Shown here piece by piece: positions 47,391 to 63,858 of a stretch of 64,000 bases of DNA. The stretch spans positions 42,429 through 106,428 of the forward strand of contig OZ244825.1 in the NCBI GenBank assembly GCA_965220385.1, given 5' to 3'. The stretch is from Candidatus Poribacteria bacterium. Lineage in GTDB: Bacteria > Poribacteria > WGA-4E > PCPOR2b. A model generated the notes under the pieces. The model saw only the letters and a list, made by a program, of their open reading frames with translations. It was not told the origin of the DNA and did not search any database. Position 1 is the stretch's first letter; each line of letters opens with the position of its first letter. The position numbers were made by a program, and so were the translations under genes.

Positions 47391-47459
47391 TTCATCTGGA
47401 TTATTTCGGAAGTAGAAACGATATGCAACCACAAGCAACATGTTAAGCAGATAAGATAT

Positions 47460-47691
47460 TATACCCCAACTCAGGTTTGAAAACAAACCTTTGGATTTAG
47501 ACGTGGGGTCATTTAATTTTACTGTAGGAGGGATCTCCGAATCTCCCGATTCTCGGGATTCTCGCCTGTCCCGATGTATCGGGGGAACGGAACCGACATC
47601 TCACTGTAGGCGTGATCTCCCGGTTGCGCCTTTTCAAACAAAATGGGTAATAAGCCGAAAACTGAATAACCCTAATTTAGACGTGGGGTAT
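47460..47691. repeat. Composite REP/MITE-like repeat cluster
   Basis: ATACCCCA...TGGGGTAT inverted ends; 15-bp direct repeat ATTTAGACGTGGGGT at 47495 and 47675; two CTGTAGG-led hairpins; nested CTGTCCCGATGTATCGGG. Confidence 0.6.
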
Positions 47692-48018
47692 TGGTTAGAT
47701 GAGAAATCATAATTGACCATTTTTCCGTTGCAAGGTTATGTGATGTGTGCTATAATGGGCAAAGCATCGGTTTTTCAAAACACAGTTGCTTGAATTGTCT
47801 TGATATAAACACTACCGCATTCCCAGGATTGAATTAATGAATTACACTACAATTTGTCCTGTTCTATAGACGGTGAGGGTAGGATCGTTCATTCCTGTCC
47901 TCTGAGTTATGGAGGGCCTGTATTACCTCCTTTGAATTTCTGGTCTTAAGGTTAGCGGATGCCGTTAACCACTCCCCATTTTTACTTGTGGGGATACGCT
48001 CAAAGGAAGGGAACAAGA

Positions 48019-48666
48019 ATGAACTTGCGGGATATTTCTCTGGGACGCCATGCACCCTCAATTATCAATGTTGTTATTGAGGCACCAAAGGGGAGTAGGA
48101 AGAAGTATAGATACCACGCAAAAAGCCGAAAATTTCGATTAGCATACGAATTTAGCATGCCAGTACCAACAGAATACGGTTGGATTCCACAAACAGTTGC
48201 TGAAGATGGGCACTTCTTGAATGCAATGGTAATTGCTACTAACGCGAGCCACCCCGGCTACATCTGCGAAGCGCGACCCATCGGTGTACTAAAACGTAAA
48301 GACAGAGACCATCACGTGATCTGTGTGATGTTGGGCGATGAACGTTACACTTCGGTCAAGGACATTTCTGATTTAGATGTTAACTTACTAAAAAAAATCG
48401 TCCAGTTTTTTGAACCCTATTTTGAACTATCCGGTTGGTTAAATAATGCCGAGACAGTCGAAGTAATCAAAAAAGCACACGAAGTATACATGGCGGACCC
48501 GAAGTCCCGAAACCCCGAAGCGGAAACAGACAGCGATTCTGGAGACGCAGAAGAAACCGAAGGCTTCGACACAGACTTTGAGGAAACGAACGTGCCAGAA
48601 GAGGACACTGAACAGGCAGACCGTGACGACCAAGGAGAGGCGGGAGATGCCAATTCCGACAATTGA
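48019..48666 (+). CDS. Family I inorganic pyrophosphatase homologue with degenerate active site and acidic tail
   Basis: VVIEAPKGSRKKY, YGWIPQT, ARPIGVL, VKDISDL, FFEPY align with Ppa, but DGDPxD reads DGHFLN; Asp/Glu-rich C-terminal ~50 aa. Confidence 0.75.
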   Translation: MNLRDISLGRHAPSIINVVIEAPKGSRKKYRYHAKSRKFRLAYEFSMPVPTEYGWIPQTVAEDGHFLNAMVIATNASHPGYICEARPIGVLKRKDRDHHVICVMLGDERYTSVKDISDLDVNLLKKIVQFFEPYFELSGWLNNAETVEVIKKAHEVYMADPKSRNPEAETDSDSGDAEETEGFDTDFEETNVPEEDTEQADRDDQGEAGDANSDN

Positions 48667-49684
48667 ATGGGTTGATGGTAGAGTCCACTTGATCGATCAA
48701 ACCCTGCTCCCGAACGAATTCAAGCAAATTTATTGTGACGATGTCGAAAGTGTTTGGGAGGCGATTAAATCTCTCCGAGTTCGTGGGGCACCTGCCATTG
48801 GGATTGCGGGCGCGTTGGGGGCAGTGCTTGGGATCTGGAAGTCGAAGGCGGTCAGCTACCCCGATTTTGCGGTCGAGCTCAAAACGATAACGGATTATCT
48901 AGCAACCTCACGCCCAACAGCAGTGAATCTCTTTTGGGCGCTGGAGCGCATTGAGCAAACAGCAGAAAAGCACAAAGACCTTGAGATTTCGCAGCTCAAA
49001 GGTGTTCTGCTTGATGAGGCACAGCGCATTATTGAGGAAGATCGCGAAAAATGTCGGGCTATCGGTCAGCACGGATTAGACCTCATCCGTAACGGTGACA
49101 GTATCTTGACGCATTGTAATGCAGGGGGACTTGCAACCTCTGATTACGGCACGGCACTCGCAGTTATGTTCTCCGCACACGAGTCAGGTAAGAACATCAC
49201 GGTTTTCGCCGATGAGACCCGTCCACTGCTGCAAGGCGCGCGATTGACAGCGTGGGAACTCATGCAAGCAGGGATTGATGTGACCCTGATTTGTGACAAC
49301 ATGGCAGCGCAGGTCATGAAGGAAGGAAAGATCCAGTGCGTCATTGTTGGGGCCGATCGCATTGCTGCAAACGGCGACACCGCCAATAAGATTGGAACAT
49401 ACAACGTTGCGATATTGGCAAAAGCACACGACATCCCTTTCTATGTTGCCGCGCCAACTTCGACCCTTGACCTCTCCCTAAGAACAGGCGATCTAATTCC
49501 GATTGAGCAGCGCGCCGCCGAAGAAGTAACGGAAGGCTTCGGTAACAGAACCGCACCCGAAGGGGTCAAGGTCTACAGCCCCGCGTTTGATGTCACCCCC
49601 GCCCACCTCATCACCGCAATCATCACAGAAAAAGGCATCGCCCACCCTCCCTTTGAGGAGAGTCTTTCCGGCCAAACTGATTAG
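48647..49684 (+). CDS. mtnA: Methylthioribose-1-phosphate isomerase
   Basis: IDQTLLP, VRGAPAIG, SRPTAVNL, LTHCNAGGLAT, DETRPLLQGARLTAWEL, GADRIAANGDTANKIGT. Confidence 0.97.
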   Translation: MPIPTIEWVDGRVHLIDQTLLPNEFKQIYCDDVESVWEAIKSLRVRGAPAIGIAGALGAVLGIWKSKAVSYPDFAVELKTITDYLATSRPTAVNLFWALERIEQTAEKHKDLEISQLKGVLLDEAQRIIEEDREKCRAIGQHGLDLIRNGDSILTHCNAGGLATSDYGTALAVMFSAHESGKNITVFADETRPLLQGARLTAWELMQAGIDVTLICDNMAAQVMKEGKIQCVIVGADRIAANGDTANKIGTYNVAILAKAHDIPFYVAAPTSTLDLSLRTGDLIPIEQRAAEEVTEGFGNRTAPEGVKVYSPAFDVTPAHLITAIITEKGIAHPPFEESLSGQTD

Positions 49685-49702
49685 CGAAACCGCACCCCGT
49701 AG

Positions 49703-50983
49703 CTATCCATCTACCCTATGGAGTAACTGAATTGCCGTTGCTGCAATTCGATCCCCGGCATCTGGACACAGCTTGCTAGACCGTGCAGTTCTCGGTTCGT
49801 AGCCCCCACCGACAAATGCCTGTGGCGTCGGAACGTACCCGACACAGCCGTTAGCAAGGGAGACGACAAACGTCGGATCAAAGGGGGAACACTCCTGAAT
49901 ATCCAACCCGTACTGACAGAAGTATTCCGCAGGCACAGCAATCAGTCCGGTTGTCCCGATTCGTATCATCTGAACCTCAGCCGTGACGCTCGGTTCAATT
50001 TTCTTGATTTCTTTGAGCAATTCAAGTTCTCTTGCCCAGACCGCTTGATCTCCCCAAGATTGTGCTTGGTTGAGCGACGCATTGTCGAGGTCGCGTAAGC
50101 GAAGCTCAACTGTTTCAGTCGCACACGCCAACGTAACGTCATCAGTATAATCCATTCGCGCCAATACCTTGATGACTTCGGCACCGATCGTCGTGCCGAC
50201 ATGCCAACCCCAGCACTCACCCGACTGCTTCCCTCGATCTCTGAGGTTATCGACTTGTGTCACATCGCCTGATGCTCCGTTCCCGAAAACAATGATCGCA
50301 TGGTCGGCTTTCATTGCCTGCTGAACGGTTTTTCTCAGGTAGTAGATGTAGTCAGCAGAAAAGCCACCCCCGCCGACACCCAGGGTGGCATGACAACAGT
50401 AGTTGATCCAGCATCCAAGGAATCTGCACGATTGATTTATCGCACCAATAACGCCGACCATTGGATCGATAGGTCCCGCGACTTGGACGATATCGGGATT
50501 GCCCACGCCCGGATGTGTCCGCTCCGAGCCATCTTTCATACGAAAGCGTCGATTGAAAGCAACACTTCCCTCATGACCCGCGCCGATAACCAATGTGGCG
50601 GGTTCACGTTTCTCATACGCCTCGATAGCTGCCTGTGCAATTTGTGCAGCAACGAAGTTACAGTAAGTCGCATCCGATTCGCTCATAAAGACATCGGCGA
50701 CGGGACCACCGTTATGTGTGTGGCTCGCCGCAATCAGCACGTTGTCAGCAGGGATAGCGGTAATATCTGCGATTTGTCCCCGCGCGCTCAAGGTTGTCGA
50801 GCGTTTAATTGATAGGCCATCAAGTCCTGCGAGGACAACCTGTGTGTTGCCATCGTCCAGTACCATCGCATTTACAAGAAGATCATCATGCACATTCTGT
50901 GAAAAACGTTTGCTAATACTTCCGGGCATTTCTGCACCAATTTCTGGTGTAATTACACGTTGACCAAATCCTACTTGAATCAT
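49703..50983 (-). CDS. Neutral/alkaline ceramidase-like metallohydrolase
   Basis: HDDL, ASHTHNG, FNRR, NYCCHAT, GASGD, PAEYF, ANGCVGYVPT, GGYE. Confidence 0.8.
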   Translation of the reverse strand: MIQVGFGQRVITPEIGAEMPGSISKRFSQNVHDDLLVNAMVLDDGNTQVVLAGLDGLSIKRSTTLSARGQIADITAIPADNVLIAASHTHNGGPVADVFMSESDATYCNFVAAQIAQAAIEAYEKREPATLVIGAGHEGSVAFNRRFRMKDGSERTHPGVGNPDIVQVAGPIDPMVGVIGAINQSCRFLGCWINYCCHATLGVGGGGFSADYIYYLRKTVQQAMKADHAIIVFGNGASGDVTQVDNLRDRGKQSGECWGWHVGTTIGAEVIKVLARMDYTDDVTLACATETVELRLRDLDNASLNQAQSWGDQAVWARELELLKEIKKIEPSVTAEVQMIRIGTTGLIAVPAEYFCQYGLDIQECSPFDPTFVVSLANGCVGYVPTPQAFVGGGYEPRTARSSKLCPDAGDRIAATAIQLLHRVDG

Positions 50984-51307
50984 TCTGAACTTTCCTCTGA
51001 TTTTAACGTCAATAACTTAAGCATTTACGTTTTGTGAATTGAGTGAAAGCCGGCGTGATGATTATCTGTGGCTTAAAATATGTTGAAGATACCAGGCACA
51101 GCGGGGTTTCATCCGGAAAATCACCGATAGATTGTATAAGGGCGATTGTGCTCCGCTTGAAGGCTTTATATGCTTGTGGTATAATTCCGAGATCGGTAGA
51201 CATTGGACCATTTTATCATGAATCTGAACGTATTTGGAGTGTTATTGAATAGATTTGACCAAAATCGGGAAGAACGTGTCCAGTCGTGGGAGCGTAGGCG
51301 CCGAATA

Positions 51308-54300
51308 ATGACATTCGGCTGGTGGTGGTTTATTGTTATTCTATCATTCCCTATTGGCTGCATGTTTATCATACCTGACGAGACTCCGGAAGCGAACGAT
51401 CCAGCTGCGCCTTGGAAGTCAACTGAACTTTTGAGCGATCAGGTCAACGCTATCGCAGCAGATGCCCAACATATCTGGGTCGCAACCGATAAAGGGATCA
51501 ACCGTTTCAACAAGCGCGAAAATTTGTGGATAAGTTACACAGTCGAAGATGGGCTGGCGAATAACAAAGTCTCTAGCGTGGCAGTTGATGGCAACACCAT
51601 CTGGTTTGGAACGGAATCCGGCGTTTCAAAATATCAACCCAGAATCGATAAATGGACAACCTACACCCGCGACGATGGTCTGCCGAGTAATCGTGTCATG
51701 GCTATCGGTGTAGATGGGAACTACATCTGGTTCGGCACAGATAAAGGTTTGAGCCGATATAATAAAGCGATCGATGTTTGGGCACTTCGCACCACCGACG
51801 ACGGTGGTCTGACCAGTAATGAGATTTCCGCTATCGCTGTCGAGGCTGAGTATGTTTGGTTCGCTACCGACAAAGGCGTATCCAGATACGATAAGAAAAT
51901 CGATTCATGGACACAGCTGACCAAAAGCGCCGGTTTAGCAGATGATAACGTCACAACTATCGCTATTGATGAGGATTTTATCTGGTTCGGTACGCAGAAC
52001 GCCGGCGTGAGTTTATACAGCACTACTGAGCAAACATTTGTAAAAACCTACACACGCACCGATCTGCTCGAAACGGATAAGATTAACTACGTCTTGGTTG
52101 ATGGTTTGTATGTCTGGATTGGTACCGCAAATGAAGGTGTTCAAAGATATATCAAACCGGTTGATACGTGGGTCCACTACAGGATAGAAGATGGGCTTCC
52201 ATCGTCAAATATCACAGCGATGGTAGTTGATGGTCAGTATGTCTGGTTCGGTACTTATGAAGACGGGTTAGCACGGTTTGATAAAATTCACGGTCTTTGG
52301 AATATCGTCAAGAAGGCGGAAGGATTAGTGAGCGACAACATCAGATCGATTGTCGAACAGGACGGTGTCCTTTGGGTTGGCACGGCGATGGGGCTCAGTC
52401 GATTTGACTTGCAATCCGGAGAATGGAGAACCTACACCAAAGCGCAGGGCTTGACGACCAATTATATCACCCGAGTTATCGCTGATGGTGATACCATCTG
52501 GGTTGGCACGTCAAAGGGCGTAGGACGATATCAGAGCGATCAGTGGAAATTCTGGAACCGTCAACACGGGCTGCCCAGCGATTTTGTCCTCGATATAGCG
52601 GTGGTTGATCAGATGGTTTGGGTCGGTACGCGCGCTGGGCTTTGGCAGTATAACCGGGAGAGTGATAAATGGCGGATCGCTGAACACCTAAAAGGAATGC
52701 GGATAAATGCTATCGCCATTGATACTAACTCGCTTTGGTTCGGAACTGATCGAGGCCTAATCCAATTCATCGATGGACATTTCACCTTTCACACCTCACA
52801 CCTTTCTCTTCACATCAACACCATAGCAAATGAAAAGAACATACTCTGGATTGGGACACGCAATGGGCTTTCCATGTTCGATAAACGGGAGAGAAGATGG
52901 CATCATTTCACAACAGAGGATGGGCTGCCGAATAACAACGTAAGAACACTCGCTATCACCGAAGATGCGCTGTGGGTGGGCACGCCGAGTGGCTTGGGTG
53001 TACTCCCTCGCAACCGATGGAGCCCCTCCACCATAAAATCGGAGGACTGGCGACAGTTCGACTTAACCCAGCCGGGGGTGGTGATGGGACATGAAAATGT
53101 CCGAGATATTTGTGTTATGGATAATCAAGTTTGGCTGGGAACGATCGGCGGCTTGGGTGTATATTCTCAGCAGGATAACGCTTGGCGATCGATTCGTGCA
53201 AAAGAACGGACGGTTGTCCTGCGTCACCGCGGCATACAACATACAGAGCTGGATGGCGATTGGGTGTGGTTTTTGGCGTGGGAAAATACATCCAACGGGG
53301 AAATCATTCGGTATGACAAGCGGACAAGAACTTGGACGCACTACATGAAAGAAGATGTGACAGAAAATCACCGAGAGGATTCGCACCAGCCAGTCCGAGA
53401 TTCAAGGCATGTTGGTAAAAGGAATCTACACCCGTCCACTCCGAATGAAGAAACTCCATACATCGCTCAAATTGATTGGATGGACGTAACTAATGACAGT
53501 GTATGGTTCGCCACGGACGGCGGAGTGCTCGCTTATTATAAAGAATCGGATACATGGCGACATTACACCACTAAGGATGGACTGGCTGCGAATAAAACAA
53601 CAACATTGATGGTTGACGGAAATGACGTATGGGTCGTTTTGAGGGATAATCGCATCTGTCGCTATCGACGGGATACTGATGGCTGGGAGACCCATCAAGT
53701 GGTTTTTAAGGAAATCTCTCCTGATATGGAATCATACCGCACGCGTCTTGCAGCAGACAGACGCTATGTCTGGGTACCAGCACAGAGGGAGGGCGTGGCA
53801 CGCTACGATAAACAGAATGAAACGTGGAAGCGCTACACTTCAGCAGATGGTTTGCAGGATGATAGCGTCGGCTTTGTTGTTGTGGATAACAATGATGTGT
53901 GGGCTTACGGCGGCTGGGGTGGAGGCTTGAGCAAGTACGACGCGAACACAGATAGCTGGGTCATTATTAATTCCAGTAAAGGGTTAGTTGCCGACCAGAT
54001 CCGGGAAGTAATCTCCGGGGTAGACTATATGTGGGTGTTGTATAACCAAAGTTGGTGGGAAGGAGACGACACCGTCCCTGCCAGCGGATTTCACAGAGCC
54101 AATCACACTTGGCAGGTGTTCCGAGGGCATCCAGAGAGTGTGGGAAACAATTTCAGAGATGTTCAAGAAACGACTGAATTCGTCTGGTTCGGAAGCGAAG
54201 AACACGGAATCAGTCGATACGATAAGGCCTCCTCATCTTGGACGGTTTTTACGAAAGAGGATGGACTACTGGATAATCGCATCAACTATCCAACTTTGAA

Positions 54301-55339
54301 AGCCGATAGCAACTTCATCTGGATGGGCAGCCGCAGCGGTCTCAGTCGTTATGACATGCGTAAAGATAGCTGGACGGTATATACGGGGAGGCGCGCCCTG
54401 CCCGCAGAAGTGGTACATGCGGTCGCTGTTGATTCGCGCTATGTTTATTGTGGAACAGAGCGGGGTGCAAGGCGCTACGATAAGCAGAATGACTTTTGGC
54501 TACAGAAGCGCATCGTAGAGGAGCCCGTGAACGATCTTGCTGTTGATGATAAATACTTGTGGATAGCAACCTCCAAAGGCGTTACCCGGTTCGATAAATC
54601 CGCGCATTGGGCAGACCTGCACGAGGCTGAAAACGGCTTGGCTGATACATTCGTCAAAGTTGCTGATGTAGAGGGACGCACCTTATGGGTCGGTACGGAT
54701 AAGGGGGTGAGCAGATACAATACGCTTTCGGACGACCCGAATGCTTGGGATAGCTTTAGGCGCGCTGACGATGTGGACACTATGTTATTGTCTCAAGAAT
54801 ACGCCAATAGCCTCATAGATAACCGAGTGACCAGTATAGCGGCAGGAAATCGTTACGTCTGGGTGGGGACGGAGAGAGGTATCAGTCGTTATGACATGAA
54901 GAAAGAGGTCTGGGTGACCTACGCACGGCAGGAGGGATTGCACCACGATAAAGTAAGTAGTATCTGCATTGACGGCGATTGGGTTTGGTTCGGTACGGAG
55001 GCAGGTGTCAGCAAGCTAAACACAAAAACGGAAGAATGGAGTGTCTTCACATCGTCTGACGGTTTAGCCAGCGATCAGATCACCAGTATCATTGCAAATG
55101 GTAACTTCGTGTGGTTTGGTAGTTTCGATGCTGGCGTGTCACGCTACAATAAGATGACGATGAAGTGGCAACACTTTACCCAAAAAGATGGACTTAGCCA
55201 TAATCGGGTGTTTGCGCTTGCCGTAGATGGTGATTTCCTTTGGGTGGGGACGGAACGTGGGCTGAGTCGGCATGACACAGTGACAGATACGTGGACAATC
55301 TTTACTCCACATTTCGATGAAGAAGAAGACCGAAGATGA
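51308..55339 (+). CDS. Giant multi-beta-propeller lipoprotein 1 (two-component regulator propeller-type repeats)
   Basis: Lipobox FPIGC; about 28 repeats of YTxxDGLxxNxVxxIAVDxxxVWFGTxxGVSRYDKxxxxW; no kinase domain. Confidence 0.85.
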   Translation: MTFGWWWFIVILSFPIGCMFIIPDETPEANDPAAPWKSTELLSDQVNAIAADAQHIWVATDKGINRFNKRENLWISYTVEDGLANNKVSSVAVDGNTIWFGTESGVSKYQPRIDKWTTYTRDDGLPSNRVMAIGVDGNYIWFGTDKGLSRYNKAIDVWALRTTDDGGLTSNEISAIAVEAEYVWFATDKGVSRYDKKIDSWTQLTKSAGLADDNVTTIAIDEDFIWFGTQNAGVSLYSTTEQTFVKTYTRTDLLETDKINYVLVDGLYVWIGTANEGVQRYIKPVDTWVHYRIEDGLPSSNITAMVVDGQYVWFGTYEDGLARFDKIHGLWNIVKKAEGLVSDNIRSIVEQDGVLWVGTAMGLSRFDLQSGEWRTYTKAQGLTTNYITRVIADGDTIWVGTSKGVGRYQSDQWKFWNRQHGLPSDFVLDIAVVDQMVWVGTRAGLWQYNRESDKWRIAEHLKGMRINAIAIDTNSLWFGTDRGLIQFIDGHFTFHTSHLSLHINTIANEKNILWIGTRNGLSMFDKRERRWHHFTTEDGLPNNNVRTLAITEDALWVGTPSGLGVLPRNRWSPSTIKSEDWRQFDLTQPGVVMGHENVRDICVMDNQVWLGTIGGLGVYSQQDNAWRSIRAKERTVVLRHRGIQHTELDGDWVWFLAWENTSNGEIIRYDKRTRTWTHYMKEDVTENHREDSHQPVRDSRHVGKRNLHPSTPNEETPYIAQIDWMDVTNDSVWFATDGGVLAYYKESDTWRHYTTKDGLAANKTTTLMVDGNDVWVVLRDNRICRYRRDTDGWETHQVVFKEISPDMESYRTRLAADRRYVWVPAQREGVARYDKQNETWKRYTSADGLQDDSVGFVVVDNNDVWAYGGWGGGLSKYDANTDSWVIINSSKGLVADQIREVISGVDYMWVLYNQSWWEGDDTVPASGFHRANHTWQVFRGHPESVGNNFRDVQETTEFVWFGSEEHGISRYDKASSSWTVFTKEDGLLDNRINYPTLKADSNFIWMGSRSGLSRYDMRKDSWTVYTGRRALPAEVVHAVAVDSRYVYCGTERGARRYDKQNDFWLQKRIVEEPVNDLAVDDKYLWIATSKGVTRFDKSAHWADLHEAENGLADTFVKVADVEGRTLWVGTDKGVSRYNTLSDDPNAWDSFRRADDVDTMLLSQEYANSLIDNRVTSIAAGNRYVWVGTERGISRYDMKKEVWVTYARQEGLHHDKVSSICIDGDWVWFGTEAGVSKLNTKTEEWSVFTSSDGLASDQITSIIANGNFVWFGSFDAGVSRYNKMTMKWQHFTQKDGLSHNRVFALAVDGDFLWVGTERGLSRHDTVTDTWTIFTPHFDEEEDRR

Positions 55340-55499
55340 TTTTAAAATAGAACGTTAGAAGGTTGGACTTTAAAGGGATTCTTCTCGCGGCGGGATCTGA
55401 GTCAAGACATAGCAGAAGAAACACACTATTTCACGGTTTTGGAAAAGCGTCTTGAGTAAAGGACAGCAACCGCTGTTTCTTACAGAAAGGCACAAAAGG

Positions 55500-58400
55500 A
55501 TGCGTCAAGTTCATATAATCTTAGGTTTCATGATACTCCTGTTTTTGGCGAATTGCGCCACACATGACCCACAACAGGTGCATCCTGATCTTTTCGTCGA
55601 TGAAGACGGCAGCATAATCAGCCAACTCCTCAGCGACCGCGTCCTATCCTTAGCTGTTGATTCACGCTATTTGTGGGTTGGGACCGACCGTGGGTTGAGT
55701 CGATACGATAAGATGCAAGGTCGGTGGCGTAATTTCACTGTAAGAGACGGTTTGGCTCACAACCACATTTTGTCCATCGCTTTGGACGACCTTCAGGTCT
55801 GGATCGGCACACGCGACGGCGTGAGTCATTACGCGATGGACACTGATAGATGGAAGCGCTACATGCCCCGTGATGGCTTGGCGGGTCGTGAGGTCTCCTG
55901 CATCGCTGTTGATTCGAGATTTATCTGGTTCGGCACGCCAAATGGACTCTCTCGGTATGATAAAGAGACGGACAGTTGGGCGCAGAAGCGCGAGAGTGAT
56001 GGACTTGCGGGTGACTTTGTTACGCAGATCGTGATAGATGACGATTACATCTGGGTCGGTACCGAGAACGGAGTTTCCAGATATGACAAACTTACCGATT
56101 CATGGAACAACTATGACAAGGAAAGTGGACTTATTGATAATAGCGTGACTGCAATCGCCGCCGATGAAGATTCCGTCTGGTTTGGTACGGAGAATAAGGG
56201 GCTCAGTCGCTACGACCAACGGAATTCGGAATTCGTCAGAGCGTACACAAAAAGGGATCGATTGACGAGTGATCAGATAAACGCGCTGGCAGTCGATGGA
56301 ACGTCACTATGGTTAGGGACTGCCGATAGTGGTGCGCAGCGCTACATTTTATCTGTCAATACGTGGCGAGAGTACGCAACAGAAGTGGGGTTACCTTCCA
56401 ATCATATTACGGCAATTGCTGCCGATGGCAACGTGGTCTGGTTCGGCACGTACGAGCATGGACTGGTACGATATGATTTACGTCGTGAACAATGGAGGAT
56501 TTATGGCGAAGTTAAAGCGTTGAGCGACAATGATGTAAAGGACATTTTAGTGACGGATGAGTCCGTTTGGGTGGCAACACGATCCGGCTTAAACCAGGCA
56601 ATCTACCTCGAAAATTCGAACTTTTCAGCGGGGCTTAATTGGAGGACGTTGAGCAAGGCAGAAGGTTTGGCGGATAACTACATTACCGCTGTGGTGGAAG
56701 TGGGAAAAGATTTGTGGGTTGGCACACCTCGCGGTTTGGGAGTGCGACGCGAGGGCGAGGACAAGTGGATATTTTTTACAGAGAAAGACGGATTGCCGCA
56801 CGACTTCGTGACCTGCGTTGCGTGGGAAACGGTGAATAGAGGTGTGGAGAGGACATCTTTACGTCTATGGATTGGGACAAAGGCAGGGCTTTCGACCTAC
56901 GATCCTCAAAGCCGAAAATGGAATACACCTCCCTCCGAATTGCAAACCTCCGGTTGGATCAACGATATCAAATTAGAGGAGAACTTTGTCTGGGTTGGTA
57001 CGACAGAGGGACTCGTCTACTATGATCGGTCTACCCGCACTTCGGGTACACTGACTGAAGCGGATGGGCTACCCTCAGATGTGATTAACACTGTTGCAAT
57101 AAAGGATAATTCTATCTGGATCGGCACAATATCCGGTTTAGTACAGATAGACAGGTCGATAATCACACCTTCCGTCCAAGGATCCACGTCCCGCTCCGCC
57201 TGTCCCGATTCCATCGGGGAGGATTCCGATGGAACTGGAGCAAGCGGGATTTCACGTTTCACGCCTCATGCCAACGTCAGGGCAATTACTGTTGATGACG
57301 ATACCATCTGGATAGGTGGGCCGTCGGGATTGGCAAAGTACGATACTGCAAAAGATCTGTGGACACATTACACCCGCGAGAATACCAACGGGGGACTCAT
57401 CTCCGATAATGTTAAGGTCATTTCAGAAGGCAGCGGTAAGCTTTGGGCGGGTACAATCGCTGGGGTCAGTTGTCTGGACAAAGAGACAGGCAGCTGGTCG
57501 AAACACGTTGCAGCGATGACAACAGAGGTGCTGCACTCGAATTGGGTCAGCAAGTTGGCGGAGGATGGGAGCGGACTCTGGTTTGGCAATTGGAAGGATT
57601 CCACAGAAGGCGCAATTGTAAGGTATGATAGACAGACAGACACGTTCCGCTTCTTTAGCAAAGATGACCTTCCATTGAAATCTATTGAGAGACCGATCAC
57701 GCGCATACACGCGGTGACTGTGGATGAAAGTGAAGTATGGGTCGGCACCAATGGTGGGCTATTACGCTACGATAAAGAAACGGATACGTGGCGTCATTAT
57801 ACTATTGAAGACGGTCTGCCAAACAATGAAGTTTGGACGATTGTTCTTGATAGTCAATATCTCTGGACAGCGCATATTGGTGGTGTAGTAAGTCGTTATT
57901 CACTTGAGACGGATACATGGAAAACCTATGAAATTGTGCCGAGCGTAGAATGGAGTAACATTGGGACCATCGCTATTGATCCTCAATATGTCTGGGTGAC
58001 AACGGTTTGGGAGGGAATTAAGCGATATGATAAATCAACGGATCGGTGGAGCAGTATTACGGAAGCACACGGTTTGGGGAACAATGAAGCCAATGACTTG
58101 CTCGTTGATGGCGATTATATCTGGGTCACGGGTTGGGGGGATGCTAGCCGTTATGATCGGCGAACCAAAGAATGGGAGATATTCTCAAGTCAGCATGTAC
58201 TCTCAGATGTGAATTTCGGGATCGATAAGGGACAGGATGGTGTTTGGCTTACATACTCGGGGTGGAGCGGCGCGCTTGCGTCGAAGTATAACAATAAGAC
58301 CGATTCGTGGACAACATTAAACCTCCCGGAGATTGAAGGGCTTGATTTTGGACGTACAAAACAGGTTGTTGAGACCACGGATACTGTTTGGTTTGCGGCA

Positions 58401-59576
58401 GATCGTCAGGGGTTGGCTCGGTATAACAAAGCTGCAAAGGATTGGGCATTCTTCGGTGAGGAGAACGGACTGCCAAGCAGTGACATCATCGAACATTCTT
58501 TGGTGGTAGACGATGATTATGTTTGGGTGGGGACCGCTGGGGGATTGAGTCGATACGATCCTAAAGAAGAGGTCTGGACCACTTTCACGCAGTCTCCATT
58601 GGCACGAACGCTCCGCGAATCAAAAGTGTACGCAATCGCCGCCGAAGCGCGTTATGTATGGTTGGGGACAACCAACGGCTTACATCGCTACGACAAACAG
58701 ACAGATCGTTGGTTTGCTCCTCGTCTGAAGGGGCTGAAAGATATGGAGGACGACACACCAAGTGTCACCTGCCTAACGATTGACGAGAAATATGCGTGGC
58801 TCGGTACTAACACTGGTGTCCTGCGCTACGATAAAGCCGGTGATCGTTGGGAAAAGTACACCGTTGAAAACGGTTTGCCTTCCAATACCATCCGAGATCT
58901 GGATGTAAAAGGCTACGACTTATGGGTCTCTACAGACCGCGGCGTTGCGACGTTCAACCGTCTGTCTGATGATCCGAATGCTTGGGAGTCGCACACACAG
59001 GCACTGGAGGTCGAAGGTATGGGAGCCGATAAGAAATATGCCCAAACACTTCTGAGCGATGATGTCCGTTGCGTTGCGATCGGTGAGAAGTTGATCTGGT
59101 TCGGCACAGACAAAGGGGCTTGCCGATATGATAAAGATAAGAAGACATGGGAAACTCTTGCTAAAAATGTTCCCGCCCTTGATAAGGTGGAAAGCCAGAA
59201 CGATCTCACAGACACTAGCGTCATTGTCATTGATGAAGGGGACATCTGGTTCGGTACGGGTAAGGGAGCGACAAAATACAGCGTCGAATCTGGGGATTTC
59301 GTTATCTACACTCAATCGGACGGTTTAGCAAGCGATATTGTCACCTGTATCGCTTTGAATGGGGAGGACATCTGGTTCGGTTCGGCGGATGCAGGCGTCA
59401 CACGGCTGGATAGAAACACGGGTGACTGGCGTGTCTTTAATATAGACGACGGCTTGTCCCATAATCGAGTTGAAGCAATCGCAGTTGACGGTGATCAGCT
59501 CTGGTTTGGGACAGAGCGGGGCTTGTGTCGGTACAATCAGAAAACTGGGACATGGACAAGCTATGCTGAAGATTAA
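55500..59576 (+). CDS. Giant multi-beta-propeller lipoprotein 2
   Basis: Lipobox FLANC; same repeat and collinear landmarks as 51308..55339. Confidence 0.85.
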   Translation: MRQVHIILGFMILLFLANCATHDPQQVHPDLFVDEDGSIISQLLSDRVLSLAVDSRYLWVGTDRGLSRYDKMQGRWRNFTVRDGLAHNHILSIALDDLQVWIGTRDGVSHYAMDTDRWKRYMPRDGLAGREVSCIAVDSRFIWFGTPNGLSRYDKETDSWAQKRESDGLAGDFVTQIVIDDDYIWVGTENGVSRYDKLTDSWNNYDKESGLIDNSVTAIAADEDSVWFGTENKGLSRYDQRNSEFVRAYTKRDRLTSDQINALAVDGTSLWLGTADSGAQRYILSVNTWREYATEVGLPSNHITAIAADGNVVWFGTYEHGLVRYDLRREQWRIYGEVKALSDNDVKDILVTDESVWVATRSGLNQAIYLENSNFSAGLNWRTLSKAEGLADNYITAVVEVGKDLWVGTPRGLGVRREGEDKWIFFTEKDGLPHDFVTCVAWETVNRGVERTSLRLWIGTKAGLSTYDPQSRKWNTPPSELQTSGWINDIKLEENFVWVGTTEGLVYYDRSTRTSGTLTEADGLPSDVINTVAIKDNSIWIGTISGLVQIDRSIITPSVQGSTSRSACPDSIGEDSDGTGASGISRFTPHANVRAITVDDDTIWIGGPSGLAKYDTAKDLWTHYTRENTNGGLISDNVKVISEGSGKLWAGTIAGVSCLDKETGSWSKHVAAMTTEVLHSNWVSKLAEDGSGLWFGNWKDSTEGAIVRYDRQTDTFRFFSKDDLPLKSIERPITRIHAVTVDESEVWVGTNGGLLRYDKETDTWRHYTIEDGLPNNEVWTIVLDSQYLWTAHIGGVVSRYSLETDTWKTYEIVPSVEWSNIGTIAIDPQYVWVTTVWEGIKRYDKSTDRWSSITEAHGLGNNEANDLLVDGDYIWVTGWGDASRYDRRTKEWEIFSSQHVLSDVNFGIDKGQDGVWLTYSGWSGALASKYNNKTDSWTTLNLPEIEGLDFGRTKQVVETTDTVWFAADRQGLARYNKAAKDWAFFGEENGLPSSDIIEHSLVVDDDYVWVGTAGGLSRYDPKEEVWTTFTQSPLARTLRESKVYAIAAEARYVWLGTTNGLHRYDKQTDRWFAPRLKGLKDMEDDTPSVTCLTIDEKYAWLGTNTGVLRYDKAGDRWEKYTVENGLPSNTIRDLDVKGYDLWVSTDRGVATFNRLSDDPNAWESHTQALEVEGMGADKKYAQTLLSDDVRCVAIGEKLIWFGTDKGACRYDKDKKTWETLAKNVPALDKVESQNDLTDTSVIVIDEGDIWFGTGKGATKYSVESGDFVIYTQSDGLASDIVTCIALNGEDIWFGSADAGVTRLDRNTGDWRVFNIDDGLSHNRVEAIAVDGDQLWFGTERGLCRYNQKTGTWTSYAED

Positions 59577-62500
59577 TAAGAGCACGAAAGTTCAGATAAA
59601 TCGAGAATCCTCGCATAGCAGGACGGAAAGACGACTGTTGTCTCGTTATTTCGTTGTTTTTCTATTTTATTTTCAGGTTTTCGCCCTACTCTTTCACTTT
59701 GGGTGTGGTTTCACCCAAATTGATTCGCGTGACGAACAATCGGCGGCGCTGGAAGAAGCAGCGATTACCCAAACAGCGACGAAACAAGCGTTAGTCAGCG
59801 ATAATGTCCGTTGTATATCAACCTCCGCTAACCAGGTTTGGGTAGGGACAGATCGGGGTGTCAGCATCTATCATAAAGTGGATAACCGTTGGACAAAGTT
59901 AGACCGGTCCGATGGGCTGCTCTCTGATGACATTACTGCCATCGCCGTCGACGGGGAATCTGTCTGGATAGGTACGACACTCGGTGTCAGTCTTTATGAT
60001 CCCAATGCAGCGGAACGTTGGACAAAGTTCCAACAACGGGACGGCATAGCAAGCAATAGAGTCACTGCCATCGCTGTGGATGGGAATCATATCTGGGTGG
60101 GGACCGAAGCGGGTATCTCGCGTTATGATAAGACGACAGGGGCGTGGGCGTTACAGCAAGAGAAGGATAAAGATTCATTTAACGTAGTCACGGCAATTGC
60201 TGTCGAATCCGAGTATGTTTGGTTCGGTACAGAAGACGGTCTCCGTCGATACGACAAATCCAAGGACGCGTGGAACACTTATACAAAAGAGGAAGGGTTG
60301 GTAGAAAACCATATCCGCTGGATCGCTTTAAGTCCTGACGCTGCTTGGGTGGGTACGGAGAAGTCAGGTGTAAGCAAGTTCAGTACAATCAACCAGACCT
60401 TTACTGAAAGCCATACCCGAACGGATCTTATAGAGAGCGATTTCATTAGAGCGATTGCGGTTGATGGCGACAACGTCTGGTTTGGTTCGGCAGACCGCGG
60501 AATTCGACGATACATTACAACGGTGGATACTTGGCTTAAGTACACGACAGCACAAGGTTTGGTCAGTGACCACATTACCGCGTTGGTTGTTGATGGTAGG
60601 AATATTTGGATTGGCACATACGAGCACGGTCTGGGCCAATACGATAAGGTGACAGATGGATGGACATGGTATGCCAGGCGCGACACGCTGGTATCGAATC
60701 AGATTCAATCACTGGTTGTAGCTGAGAATGCACTCTGGGCAGGTACAAATAAAGGTCTGAGTCGCTACGCGCTTTACGAAAAAACGTGGAGAACCTACAC
60801 CAAAGCAGATGGCTTAACAACCAACTATATTACCGCTTTGGCAGGGGGCGACGACGGGGCACTCTGGGTTGGAACGGCCTTGGGATTAGGAACACTCGAA
60901 GGAGAACGGTGGCGTTTCTACACCGAGCGGAATGGATTGGCAGACAATTTTGTTACCTGTATTGACCTTTCCGATAAGATCTGGGTCGGGACGAAAGGTG
61001 GATTAAGTGCCTTAATACAAGAACCCCTAACCTCTTCGTCACAATCGGGGAAGGTCGAGCAAATTCCGACAAGGCGAGGATCCTCGCAGAGCGGGACAAG
61101 AAGTCTTCACGAATCTACGCACATCACCGCGAATCAAATAAGTGTAGATGATTCACGAGGCTCGGCGAATGGCTCTCGCGTTTCACGTTTCACGTTTCAC
61201 GTTTTGCGCCAACCCTATCTCACCGGCAAGTGGGTAACAGCAGTGCTGGCAATTGGTGAGGAGGTTTGGGTGGGAACGACAGAAGGGTTATATCGGAGAG
61301 GTGCTACGAGGGATAAATTTGAACCGTTTCCCCCGATAACGGGTTATGTCAATACACTTACGTTCAACCCGGATGGAAGATTGCTAGTCGGTACTCGGAA
61401 TGGGTTATGGATTATTCGCCCCCCCTTTTATCGCCCCGATAGCGGGGGGATAAGGGGCGTAACCCACATTACCGATGGTCTGCCAAACCTGAATGTCCGG
61501 GCTATTGCAGTAGACAAAGAAACCGTCTGGATCGGGACACCGGCTGGAATTGCACGCTCCGATGGAGCCAGAATTCAACAGGTGTTTACGATGCAGCCAG
61601 AGGGTTTGCTGCACAATAATGTTCAGGGTATCGCTGTTGTGGGTAAGCAGGTCTTTTTCGGTACGGTTGCAGGCGTTGCTGTCTATGACGTAGAGAAAAA
61701 TTTGTGGGATAAGCATACCCCATATCGTGATACAGAAATTCTGAGAGAAGATCAAGCGCGTTGGATGGAGTTAGATGGGCACTATCTGTGGGTGCTTAAC
61801 TGGGCGGCTTCCCCGAATGGCGCGATTTTAAAATTCGATCGCCGTACCGATACGTGGATAGAGTACACAAAGGACGCGCTACCCATCTCATCCGAAGTCC
61901 CATTTATCACCGCAATTCGACGGTTAGCGGTGGGGACAGAAGACGTCTGGTGTGCGACGGGGGATGGCGGCGTGCTGCGATACAACAAAGCCTCTGATAC
62001 ATGGACGCACTTCACAAGATCATCGGGCCTGCCGGGACATCATGCTACACTCATTGAACTTGATGAACCAAATGGCGTTTGGGTTGCCTTCCAAGGCGGC
62101 GTAGCAGCGCACTATGATACGCGGACAGAGAAGTGGCAATCGGTGAAGGTGACGGAAGCAGGTCCCGGTAGGTACATCGAAGATATTGCCTGTACGAAAG
62201 ATTATGTCTGGTTTTCCACAAATGGCGTTGGGGTCAAGAGATATGAGCGGACGACGAAAACTTGGCGCTCATACACGGAAGCGCAAGGTATGGCTTCTCG
62301 CTCCGGTGAGTGGATTGCCGCGGACGGAGAGGGAGTGTGGACCAGCGGCGGAAGTTCTTATTCGTGGGTCAGTGACCGGGGAATGAGCGGTGTGAGTTAC
62401 TATTCGCTTATCGACGATACTTGGACAATCTATGATAGGCGCAAGGGGCTGCGGGTTAATTGGACGGGGTCCGGACAGGTCAGCGAGAACTACGTCTGGT

Positions 62501-63858
62501 GCTTCGGTTGGAGTGGTATCAACAGGTACGATAAAACGGGCAGGTCGTGGACTTCCTTCACGCGAAGCGATGGACTGCCTGAATCATCGGTTGAGGCTAT
62601 TTCGGAGGATAGCGATGGCTTCTGGGTCGGCACGGGCGATGCGGGTGTGCTAAAATACTCACAAGCGTCTGGGGCATGGACAGCCTTCACGGTCGAGGAT
62701 GGACTCGTTCACGATAGCGTCTGGAGATACCAGCTTAAAGTCGATTCAAAATACGTCTGGGTCGGCACATCGAAAGGCGTGAGTCGCTATGATAAAGAAA
62801 AAGAAACATGGATATCCTTCACCAAACCAACCACCTTAGCGGACCGACGATCGGTTGCTGTTGCTACCGATTCCCGGCACGTCTGGGTTGGTACGCATCG
62901 AGGCTTGAGTCGATACGACAAACGGTACGACAGATGGAAACACTTTGAAAAACCGGACGAAAGATCAGAAAGAGATCAGGACGAGGATGGAGATGAAGAG
63001 GACGATGAGGAAGAACAGGAGCCAGAGACAACAGATGAACTGGTAGATAACAATGTCATTGACTTGTCCGTTGGGAAGCGGTATATTTGGATTGCGACCG
63101 AAGGTGGGGTTGGTCGGTACGATAAAATCGCGGATCGGTTTGAATCGTACACTAAAGAAAATCAACTGCCCAGTGTTGATATTCGAGCGGTTGTCGAAAA
63201 TCGAAGCGATGTGTGGATTGGAACAAAAAACGGTATTAGTAAGCACAGTATTCTCTCCGATGATCGGAACGCTTGGGAAACATATAACGCCGCTATTGAA
63301 ATCCTGCCAACAGTGGAGGGAAAATACGCCAAGAGCCTCGAAAATGATGATGTACGATGTCTTGCGGTAGACGATAACCGCGTTTGGGCTGGAACAAAAA
63401 CAGGGGTCTCGCTTTATGCAATCAAACAGGGGACGTGGACTACTTTTACTCAAGAGGATGGGTTAGCGAGTGATGAGATTAGTTGTATTGCCATTGACAA
63501 CGGGCAGGTCTGGTTCGGTAGTGGACGTGGTGTGGCAGTGCACGACACGGTAAATGGAACGTGGAAAGCAATTACAGAAGCGGATGGCTTGAACTCAAAT
63601 CTTATTACATCAATGGCAATTCGCGGGAATCAGATCTGGTTCGGTACGTTCGACAAGGGAGTCACCATGTTGGATAAAATCACAGGGGAGTTTACAAACT
63701 TCACCAGAGCGGACGGGCTGCCGCATAATGGCATTCTATCGATTGCAACCGATGGTGACTACCTCTGGTTCGGTACGCATGGCGGGTTGACCCGTTATGA
63801 TTCTCTGACAGGCACATGGACGGTTTATACCGAGCGGTTTGATCATGATGGCATTTGA
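59563..63858 (+). CDS. Giant multi-beta-propeller lipoprotein 3
   Basis: Hydrophobic segment then HFGC; same repeat; ATG overlaps the end of gene 2 (true start may be the TTG near 59638); acidic loop near 62956-63030. Confidence 0.83.
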   Translation: MLKINKSTKVQINRESSHSRTERRLLSRYFVVFLFYFQVFALLFHFGCGFTQIDSRDEQSAALEEAAITQTATKQALVSDNVRCISTSANQVWVGTDRGVSIYHKVDNRWTKLDRSDGLLSDDITAIAVDGESVWIGTTLGVSLYDPNAAERWTKFQQRDGIASNRVTAIAVDGNHIWVGTEAGISRYDKTTGAWALQQEKDKDSFNVVTAIAVESEYVWFGTEDGLRRYDKSKDAWNTYTKEEGLVENHIRWIALSPDAAWVGTEKSGVSKFSTINQTFTESHTRTDLIESDFIRAIAVDGDNVWFGSADRGIRRYITTVDTWLKYTTAQGLVSDHITALVVDGRNIWIGTYEHGLGQYDKVTDGWTWYARRDTLVSNQIQSLVVAENALWAGTNKGLSRYALYEKTWRTYTKADGLTTNYITALAGGDDGALWVGTALGLGTLEGERWRFYTERNGLADNFVTCIDLSDKIWVGTKGGLSALIQEPLTSSSQSGKVEQIPTRRGSSQSGTRSLHESTHITANQISVDDSRGSANGSRVSRFTFHVLRQPYLTGKWVTAVLAIGEEVWVGTTEGLYRRGATRDKFEPFPPITGYVNTLTFNPDGRLLVGTRNGLWIIRPPFYRPDSGGIRGVTHITDGLPNLNVRAIAVDKETVWIGTPAGIARSDGARIQQVFTMQPEGLLHNNVQGIAVVGKQVFFGTVAGVAVYDVEKNLWDKHTPYRDTEILREDQARWMELDGHYLWVLNWAASPNGAILKFDRRTDTWIEYTKDALPISSEVPFITAIRRLAVGTEDVWCATGDGGVLRYNKASDTWTHFTRSSGLPGHHATLIELDEPNGVWVAFQGGVAAHYDTRTEKWQSVKVTEAGPGRYIEDIACTKDYVWFSTNGVGVKRYERTTKTWRSYTEAQGMASRSGEWIAADGEGVWTSGGSSYSWVSDRGMSGVSYYSLIDDTWTIYDRRKGLRVNWTGSGQVSENYVWCFGWSGINRYDKTGRSWTSFTRSDGLPESSVEAISEDSDGFWVGTGDAGVLKYSQASGAWTAFTVEDGLVHDSVWRYQLKVDSKYVWVGTSKGVSRYDKEKETWISFTKPTTLADRRSVAVATDSRHVWVGTHRGLSRYDKRYDRWKHFEKPDERSERDQDEDGDEEDDEEEQEPETTDELVDNNVIDLSVGKRYIWIATEGGVGRYDKIADRFESYTKENQLPSVDIRAVVENRSDVWIGTKNGISKHSILSDDRNAWETYNAAIEILPTVEGKYAKSLENDDVRCLAVDDNRVWAGTKTGVSLYAIKQGTWTTFTQEDGLASDEISCIAIDNGQVWFGSGRGVAVHDTVNGTWKAITEADGLNSNLITSMAIRGNQIWFGTFDKGVTMLDKITGEFTNFTRADGLPHNGILSIATDGDYLWFGTHGGLTRYDSLTGTWTVYTERFDHDGI

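Follow-up and report, generated by a model that had tools for sequence, protein, structure and literature searches.

What does a pyrophosphatase-fold protein do once half of its catalytic residues are gone, and why is it kept directly ahead of mtnA, the gene for S-methyl-5-thioribose-1-phosphate isomerase? This question is raised by a locus of a Candidatus Poribacteria bacterium, in a 64,000-nucleotide stretch of contig OZ244825.1 (positions 42,429 to 106,428), which we call the window and whose positions are used throughout. The gene, at 48019-48666 on the + strand, is an intact open reading frame (ORF) that starts with ATG and spans 215 codons; its product is referred to as P0001. Family I pyrophosphatases generally count as housekeeping enzymes of a uniform kind, whose active site hardly varies. 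Our analysis confirmed a non-canonical protein with the pyrophosphatase fold that is conserved, under selection and tied to mtnA; it is a variant of a known fold and probably has a new job beside mtnA.

We first define the gene and its family. A Shine-Dalgarno sequence, AAGGAAGGG, is found at 48003-48011, ahead of the start at 48019. An in-frame ATG at 47959 was considered as an alternative start and rejected, and 48019 was taken instead, because the upstream ATG is not conserved in relatives. P0001 matched Pfam PF00719 with 101.5 bits (cut-off 23.5) over profile positions 1-152 of 153, and it missed the NCBIfam equivalog cut-offs for inorganic diphosphatase (NF002317, 79.8 vs 200; NF002578, 70.1 vs 246; NF001886, 42.8 vs 247). 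By phmmer against the PDB, family I pyrophosphatases from archaea and bacteria are its closest solved relatives (1qez, E 2e-23; 3i98, E 1e-21). In an AlphaFold2 model built with 36 relatives, the core (residues 50-160) reached block values of 74-93 for the predicted local distance difference test (pLDDT). The top PDB matches listed by Foldseek for this model were all pyrophosphatases, with a target-normalised template modelling score of ~0.72, a best E of 9.4e-14 and 27-36% identity, and the ESM Atlas returned nothing beyond pyrophosphatase clusters. P0001 is a family I pyrophosphatase-fold protein.

The catalytic residues of family I pyrophosphatases (PPases) bind Mg2+ ions and inorganic pyrophosphate (PPi). 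In the E. coli enzyme, D67 is the general base, D70 is a metal ligand, and R43, K104 and K142 bind PPi. P0001 was aligned by MAFFT with E. coli Ppa, taken from NC_000913.3 with the numbering checked, and compared at the fourteen residues that we take to be catalytic (E20, K29, E31, R43, Y51, Y55, D65, D67, D70, D97, D102, K104, Y141 and K142, E. coli numbering). Seven of the fourteen are unchanged, namely E20, K29, Y55, D65, D97, D102 and Y141, exactly the set that an earlier sequence-only reading had listed as kept. The changes E31>R, D67>H, D70>N, K104>H and K142>F, also listed there, were found as well. The remaining one, R43>E, was not: the position holds Tyr in the MAFFT alignment (D42>A, R43>Y), D42-R43 fall in a gap by HMMER, and neither alignment puts a basic residue there. 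Y51 lies inside a two-residue deletion, A103 is replaced by His, and the D-x-D-x-x-D motif is broken, with DGDPVD becoming DGHFLN. Compared with E. coli Ppa, P0001 also has a three-residue deletion ahead of D102, has lost the loop past residue 142, and carries Q and P in place of H136 and H140, which sit at the trimer-trimer interface of the E. coli protein. All fourteen catalytic residues are kept in 66 of 119 single-domain library hits, and at least three are changed in 26 of the 119; degenerate family I PPase-like proteins thus occur elsewhere too.

To place the gene within its clade, 176 genomes of the phylum were surveyed. A match was obtained in 41, two of which gave weak hits to a different short protein, and 39 carry the gene, all of them Candidatus Poribacteria; in one carrier (G016) it is split across two contig ends. 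The carriers comprise 27 of the 29 genomes of the window's family (f1), all sampled genomes of families f5, f6, f7 and f9, and six of the eight of f8; in this search the gene was not found in families f2, f3, f4, f10 and f11. A word-indexed search yielded 78 relatives among 101 candidates, 69 of them at 55-95% identity, and the named relatives in databases are labelled as inorganic diphosphatase of Candidatus Poribacteria. When 1.84 billion representative proteins were searched with a profile, 18 proteins were returned at E ≤1e-30. Six are single-domain proteins counted as clade, P0010, P0053, P0082, P0083 and P0085 being checked by sequence and P0092 counted without sequence inspection; six others have several domains, with sites that are mostly canonical; and the last six were taken as canonical by score and length, with the sequence inspected for P0091 and P0095 only. 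Scanning 185,579 species genomes with a pattern returned 34 loci from Poribacteria, plus a single canonical gene from Ilumatobacter. In a quick IQ-TREE analysis, the 18 sampled clade members lay on one side of a branch with a Shimodaira-Hasegawa-like support (SH-aLRT) of 93, and their internal order followed taxonomy. These data fit vertical descent within the class together with loss in f2-f4.

The gene is not decaying. Over 19 full-length f1 genes, the Nei-Gojobori ratio of nonsynonymous to synonymous substitution (dN/dS) was 0.049 for the domain (aa 1-160), 0.30 for the tail (aa 161-208) and 0.058 for mtnA. The domain value, well below the ratio of one on which the earlier reading had made its case depend, indicates strong purifying selection and argues against strain-specific decay. 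H67, N70 and H104, singled out in that reading, are invariant in 27 of 27 f1 genomes, and the rewired residues are therefore more than chance.

Conservation of the former catalytic columns differs sharply between f1 and the whole clade. In the 27 f1 genomes, 12 of 13 such columns are invariant vs 73 of 147 other domain columns, with a Fisher p of 0.003 that overstates the difference, as the f1 genomes are kin. Across the whole clade (38 members), only F142 is invariant, that is 1 of 13 vs 23 of 147 others. In eight canonical pyrophosphatases, 12 of 13 catalytic columns are invariant vs 21 of 147 others. Hence catalysis is not the constraint common to the clade. The sister lineages carry E, D, N or K at 67, D or E at 70, K or Q at 104, and G at 65: D65/E67/D70/K104 in L032 and L035, D65/D67/D70/K104 with C55 and F141 in L034, V20/G29/N67/E70/N97/E102 in L036 and L037, and G65/K67/N70/Q104 in the f8 loci. 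What the whole clade has in common is His103, Phe142, an aromatic residue at 43, a Trp after Y55-G and three loop deletions, and the residues invariant throughout it (R10, W55, H98, P133, F135 and W140) are not the catalytic ones. Because the sister lineages differ at 65, 67, 70 and 104, a transition-metal chemistry common to the clade is unlikely. The proposal that the new His residues form such a site therefore survives only in part: the His/Asn set is invariant in f1, and a metal site would at most be a property of that family.

Several related proteins were seen beside the clade. P0116 is a degenerate PPase-like metagenome protein with G65/K67/N70, His103 and a YGW motif like f8, in which R43 and K104 are kept; as an mtnA-linked relative it was ruled out, mtnA not being adjacent in three of three metagenome loci (L096-L098). 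P0084, P0086, P0087, P0088 and P0090 (527-649 aa) contain three tandem pyrophosphatase domains and P0089 (398 aa) contains two; the middle domain is degenerate in P0088 and P0090. These tandem proteins look like covalently linked trimers. P0082, an f8-type relative of 252 aa, has no acidic tail; in its place stands a strongly basic repeated one of about four units close to RNRRRNRQPKKPRQK.

The second feature of the locus is its linkage to mtnA. The mtnA start at 48647 overlaps the upstream gene, whose stop codon is at 48664-48666, by 20 nt, so that the intact frame and the overlap described from the sequence alone are both borne out. mtnA lies directly downstream, in the same orientation, in 30 of 30 loci and in the nine of nine remaining genomes, 39 of 39 in total, and the linkage is thus conserved in every carrier. 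Stop and start overlap in 35 of the 39 (20 nt in 26, 74-77 nt in three, 4-29 nt in six f8 loci); gaps of 28-79 nt separate the genes in four genomes, two of which belong to genus g1 and have a shortened tail (L008, L024). The other neighbours vary by lineage, including IMPDH, HtrA, LysM, a bifunctional-nuclease domain and ComB among others, and the pair alone is conserved. The mtnA Shine-Dalgarno sequence (48632-48640) is placed inside the tail codons for DQGE.ED; it is purine-rich and conserved in f1 loci. In two loci without the pyrophosphatase-fold gene, mtnA stands alone. MtnA itself is acidic, with an isoelectric point (pI) of 4.95. Co-folding of MtnA with the pyrophosphatase-fold protein scored 0.02 vs a mark of 0.32, which weighs neither way.

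We then examined which other pyrophosphatases and salvage enzymes the source genome (G000; 6.36 Mb, 98% complete) contains. A membrane H+-pyrophosphatase (H+-PPase) was found with 887.7 bits, which answers the earlier question of another PPase in this genome, and the same enzyme is present in 173 of the 176 phylum genomes. A family II pyrophosphatase was ruled out in the source genome, where no DHHA2 match was obtained. The only other full-length PF00719 gene found in the phylum is a canonical-scoring one (151 bits) in G037, a 910-contig assembly. For methionine salvage, the source genome has mtnP (316 bits) and an mtnB-mtnD-mtnC operon (aldolase-II domain, 124 bits; acireductone dioxygenase, 114 bits; enolase-phosphatase, 241 bits). 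These genes rule out the idea that the protein supplies a missing phosphatase; with mtnP, mtnA and mtnB-mtnD-mtnC complete, no salvage step is left for it.

Shorter PF00719-like frames also exist. A second PF00719 hit in the source genome, the only one besides P0001, encodes 127 aa (28.5 bits; L002 1420-1803 on the - strand, corresponding to C1 ~4093385-4093768); it spans the middle of the fold only and keeps DGEELD and DDDDK motifs. Such short forms, of 116-190 aa, are found in many f1 genomes, 9 of 11 f2 genomes and two f8 genomes.

The charge of the protein is unusual in both of its parts. The tail had been described as acidic and about 50 aa long; it covers aa 161-215, 55 aa with 22 D/E and 3 K/R (net charge -19), and with pLDDT <50 for residues 165-215 it is predicted to be disordered. 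Tails are acidic in most lineages, absent in L032 and L035, and near neutral in genus g6. An earlier stop shortens the tail in 2 of 20 g1 genomes (L008 from G048, 198 aa; L024 from G053, 187 aa), and short-tailed forms also occur as protein clusters, e.g. P0047. Either the tail is dispensable or the L008 and L024 stops are assembly errors. The last ~13 tail codons also hold the mtnA Shine-Dalgarno sequence and the mtnA start, and the conserved tail end, DQGE.EDA.SDN, is dual-coded with that sequence and the first mtnA codons; its conservation therefore need not point to any role of the tail itself. In 36 sequences, the domain ranges from near neutral to basic (net -2 to +9, pI 6.2-10.0), compared with a median pI of 5.2 in 82 canonical-type hits and a net charge of -9 in E. 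coli Ppa. Every one of the 36 is positively charged at aa 20-48, with a net +3 to +8 (+7 in P0001). Across 13 lineage representatives, the charge of the domain runs counter to that of the tail (Spearman -0.58, p 0.037, uncorrected for phylogeny).

Upstream of the gene, the promoter-like site is shared by 13 of the 15 f1 loci aligned. It is followed by a leader with a mean column identity of 82% across 18 g1 genomes, which is single-copy in the genome; outside genus g1 it can be detected only in g4, and there in part. Two invariant leader segments (47887-47902 and 47926-47935) could base-pair with the Shine-Dalgarno/AUG region, and in both RNAalifold and the single-sequence minimum free energy fold (z = -2.42 for the latter) the Shine-Dalgarno sequence and AUG are paired with conserved upstream segments. 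Since compensatory changes were found in only 2 of the 57 RNAalifold pairs, the predicted structure is not proven. No Rfam family matched within 47400-49800 at E ≤1. We regard the leader as a candidate riboswitch or element of translational control. Metatranscriptome contigs from relatives ~94-95% identical (four libraries, two studies) cover the pyrophosphatase-fold gene; contigs begin at 47788 or 47818, downstream of the promoter-like site, and one (48236-49032) bridges the junction with mtnA. These contigs are a weak sign that the gene pair is expressed in relatives, as the libraries may contain DNA; gaps of cover in single runs were given no weight. The features of the locus are collected in Table 1.

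Table 1. Features of the pyrophosphatase-fold gene and mtnA in the window.
Feature	Position	Strand	Basis
Promoter-like site: TTGCAA, 17-nt spacer, TG-extended TATAAT	47728..47756	+	10/12 consensus matches
Structured 5' leader of the two-gene operon, 262 nt (predicted)	47757..48018	+	conservation, RNA folding
Pyrophosphatase-fold domain, aa 1-160, rewired cavity	48019..48498	+	PF00719, PDB matches, AlphaFold2/Foldseek, site comparison, dN/dS
R31 codon	48109-48111	+	site comparison
Y43 codon	48145-48147	+	site comparison
H65 (=D67) codon	48211-48213	+	site comparison
N68 (=D70) codon	48220-48222	+	site comparison
H98/H99 (=A103/K104) codons	48310-48315	+	site comparison
F135 (=K142) codon	48421-48423	+	site comparison
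Disordered acidic C-terminal tail (predicted), aa 161-215, and stop codon	48499..48666	+	pLDDT, charge, dN/dS
mtnA, S-methyl-5-thioribose-1-phosphate isomerase	48647..49684	+	TIGR00512 456.6 bits vs cut-off 279; PF01008 312 bits

Taken together, we tentatively favour, with slightly less than even confidence, the reading that the protein is no longer a Mg2+-dependent PPase and has been kept as a co-transcribed, translationally coupled and probably non-catalytic accessory of MtnA. This reading rests on the loss of seven of the fourteen catalytic residues, including D67, D70, R43, K104 and K142; on the variation of the former catalytic columns across the clade, where other residues are the invariant ones; on the low dN/dS of the domain, the unbroken pairing with mtnA and the frequent overlap; on the H+-PPase, which covers the housekeeping need for a PPase; on a domain that is near-neutral to basic when set against the canonical enzymes; and, weakly, on the RNA-library contigs of relatives. 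From these points we infer the loss of PPase activity, a binding role and a functional tie to MtnA. Most likely, the protein would act by binding instead of hydrolysis. The former metal/PPi cavity has shifted from strongly acidic to neutral or basic, with aromatics (R43>Y, K142>F) in place of the residues that hold the leaving-group phosphate. An anionic ligand would fit such a cavity, be it a sugar phosphate, for instance S-methyl-5-thioribose 1-phosphate (MTR-1-P), or metal-free phosphate (Pi) or PPi. Alternatively, the protein may bind the acidic MtnA itself and thereby modulate or buffer the isomerase step. A more specific version, in which the metal-free, basic and aromatic former PPi site captures MTR-1-P (or PPi, polyphosphate or leader RNA), is gated by the tail and feeds or regulates MtnA, appears rather doubtful to us. 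The original interpretation, a pseudoenzyme or a neofunctionalised protein, is thus upheld insofar as the protein is selected, rewired and linked to mtnA, and weakened insofar as the proposed metal site can at most belong to f1.

Several observations weigh against an accessory of MtnA. mtnA is present in 171 of the 176 phylum genomes, 132 of which have no pyrophosphatase-fold gene, so MtnA does not depend on it; with the canonical pathway complete without the gene as well, the suggested role in methylthioribose/5-deoxyribose salvage was not upheld. Two f1 genomes (G030, G032) lack the gene. In f1, conservation is higher in the cavity than in the remaining domain columns, which also fits a lineage-specific catalytic site, and the lineage of G017 keeps D65/D67/D70/K104, residues by which its protein might still hydrolyse something. 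In the model, pLDDT drops to <50 over residues 23-30 and 38-48, the stretches with K29, R31 and Y43. Finally, none of 581 candidates was a fused or longer PPase-MtnA form, although this is weak evidence.

The conserved f1 cavity leads directly to the idea of a neofunctionalised hydrolase, in which D63, H65, N68, D95, D97 and H99 would bind a transition metal and cleave another phosphate ester or anhydride, with a substrate linked to methylthioadenosine (MTA)/5-deoxyribose salvage such as a sugar 1-phosphate or a side product. Invariance of 12 of 13 cavity columns in f1, the seven catalytic residues that remain and the tight linkage to mtnA all speak for such an enzyme. However, sisters with the same pairing carry G65/K67/N70/Q104 or V20/G29/N67/E70/N97 and have no common catalytic constellation, and the MtnC phosphatase and every other salvage step are already present; we regard this hydrolase as unlikely, though likelier than the other alternatives. 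A still active soluble inorganic PPase, perhaps slow or using another metal, could serve S-adenosylmethionine (SAM)/methionine metabolism, as SAM synthetase releases PPi. The fold and seven of the fourteen residues are those of a PPase, the gene is the only full-length PF00719 member in these genomes, and databases name its relatives as inorganic diphosphatase. Such an activity is improbable given that D67, D70, K104, R43 and K142 are lost together, all equivalog cut-offs are missed, the H+-PPase is universal in the phylum and 137 of 176 genomes do without the gene.

The charge pattern and the leader open a different route. The pyrophosphatase core is an oligonucleotide/oligosaccharide-binding (OB)-type barrel, and the protein could be a polyanion binder whose basic, aromatic N-terminal hairpin binds RNA, possibly its own leader, or polyphosphate, while a self-masking acidic tail like that of single-strand-binding protein (SSB) competes, so that translation of the gene itself and of mtnA is regulated. 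This agrees with the positive segment aa 20-48 in all 36 sequences, with the disordered acidic tail and its inverse charge relation to the domain, and with a conserved leader predicted to sequester the Shine-Dalgarno sequence and AUG. Yet tails are absent, near neutral or truncated in the lineages named above, the leader is confined to g1 and part of g4, and searches of Pfam, NCBIfam and the ESM Atlas matched no nucleic-acid-binding family, which makes this binder distinctly unlikely. Lastly, the protein might be a functionless relic, kept only since its translation drives expression of mtnA, as the frequent stop/start overlap and the mtnA Shine-Dalgarno sequence inside the tail codons would allow. 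We consider this highly improbable: the domain evolves as slowly as mtnA, mtnA has its own Shine-Dalgarno sequence, and the clade has been retained from a time that predates the split of the class into orders.

Further observations concern the surroundings of the pair. In the f8 loci L038, L039 and L041 (three of three scanned), a gene with a PF02577 bifunctional-nuclease domain directly follows mtnA; it is not there in the window. Here mtnA faces a convergent 426-aa ORF at 49703-50983 on the - strand, for which Pfam gave no match at E ≤0.001. Three successive ORFs of ~1,370-1,460 aa lie beyond it on the + strand (51203-55339, 55452-59576 and 59470-63858), the first two full of two-component-regulator propeller (Reg_prop) repeats. 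On the other side, between a leucine-rich-repeat gene and the promoter-like site, a dispersed short repeat occupies 47505-47675. It gave 89 genome hits by blastn-short, among them a 153-nt copy at C1:4524678 with 98.7% identity; the other g1 genomes lack the repeat at this position, and many RNA-library contigs end inside it.

Collectively, a whole clade of a sponge-symbiont candidate phylum has given up the pyrophosphatase active site, evolves at the slow pace of a core metabolic enzyme and has stayed with mtnA from before its class split into orders. The database name of its proteins, inorganic diphosphatase, is probably wrong. In literature searches read at the level of titles and abstract openings, neither the clade nor family I pyrophosphatases without activity turned up, nor did any link between a PPase and MtnA. 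If a role were found, it would add a new regulatory or ligand-handling component to methionine salvage and show the reuse of a fold freed by the H+-pyrophosphatase; if the binding-module reading is true, methionine salvage would offer a first case of a family I PPase fold that has taken on the part of a non-catalytic partner.

In comparison with known systems, P0001 resembles the family I Ppa proteins (E. coli; Sulfolobus acidocaldarius, 1qez; Thermococcus thioreducens, 3i98) in its fold and seven catalytic residues, and differs from them in a neutral-to-basic domain where Ppa is acidic, an added disordered acidic tail and an operon with mtnA. Bacterial SSB and T7 gp2.5 are OB-fold single-strand-binding proteins with acidic C-terminal tails. 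P0001 has no sequence or profile similarity to SSB families, and its tail is not universal in the clade; in common with SSB and T7 gp2.5, it would join a small beta-barrel with a basic aromatic surface to an acidic tail predicted to be disordered. A further parallel is offered by pseudoenzymes, inactive paralogues through which an active enzyme is regulated, such as the trypanosome AdoMetDC prozyme (PMC5201418). Unlike that case, MtnA is not a paralogue of P0001, and no active family I PPase is left in the genome; like the prozyme, P0001 combines an enzyme fold that has lost catalytic residues, purifying selection and a genetic tie to an active enzyme of SAM-related metabolism.

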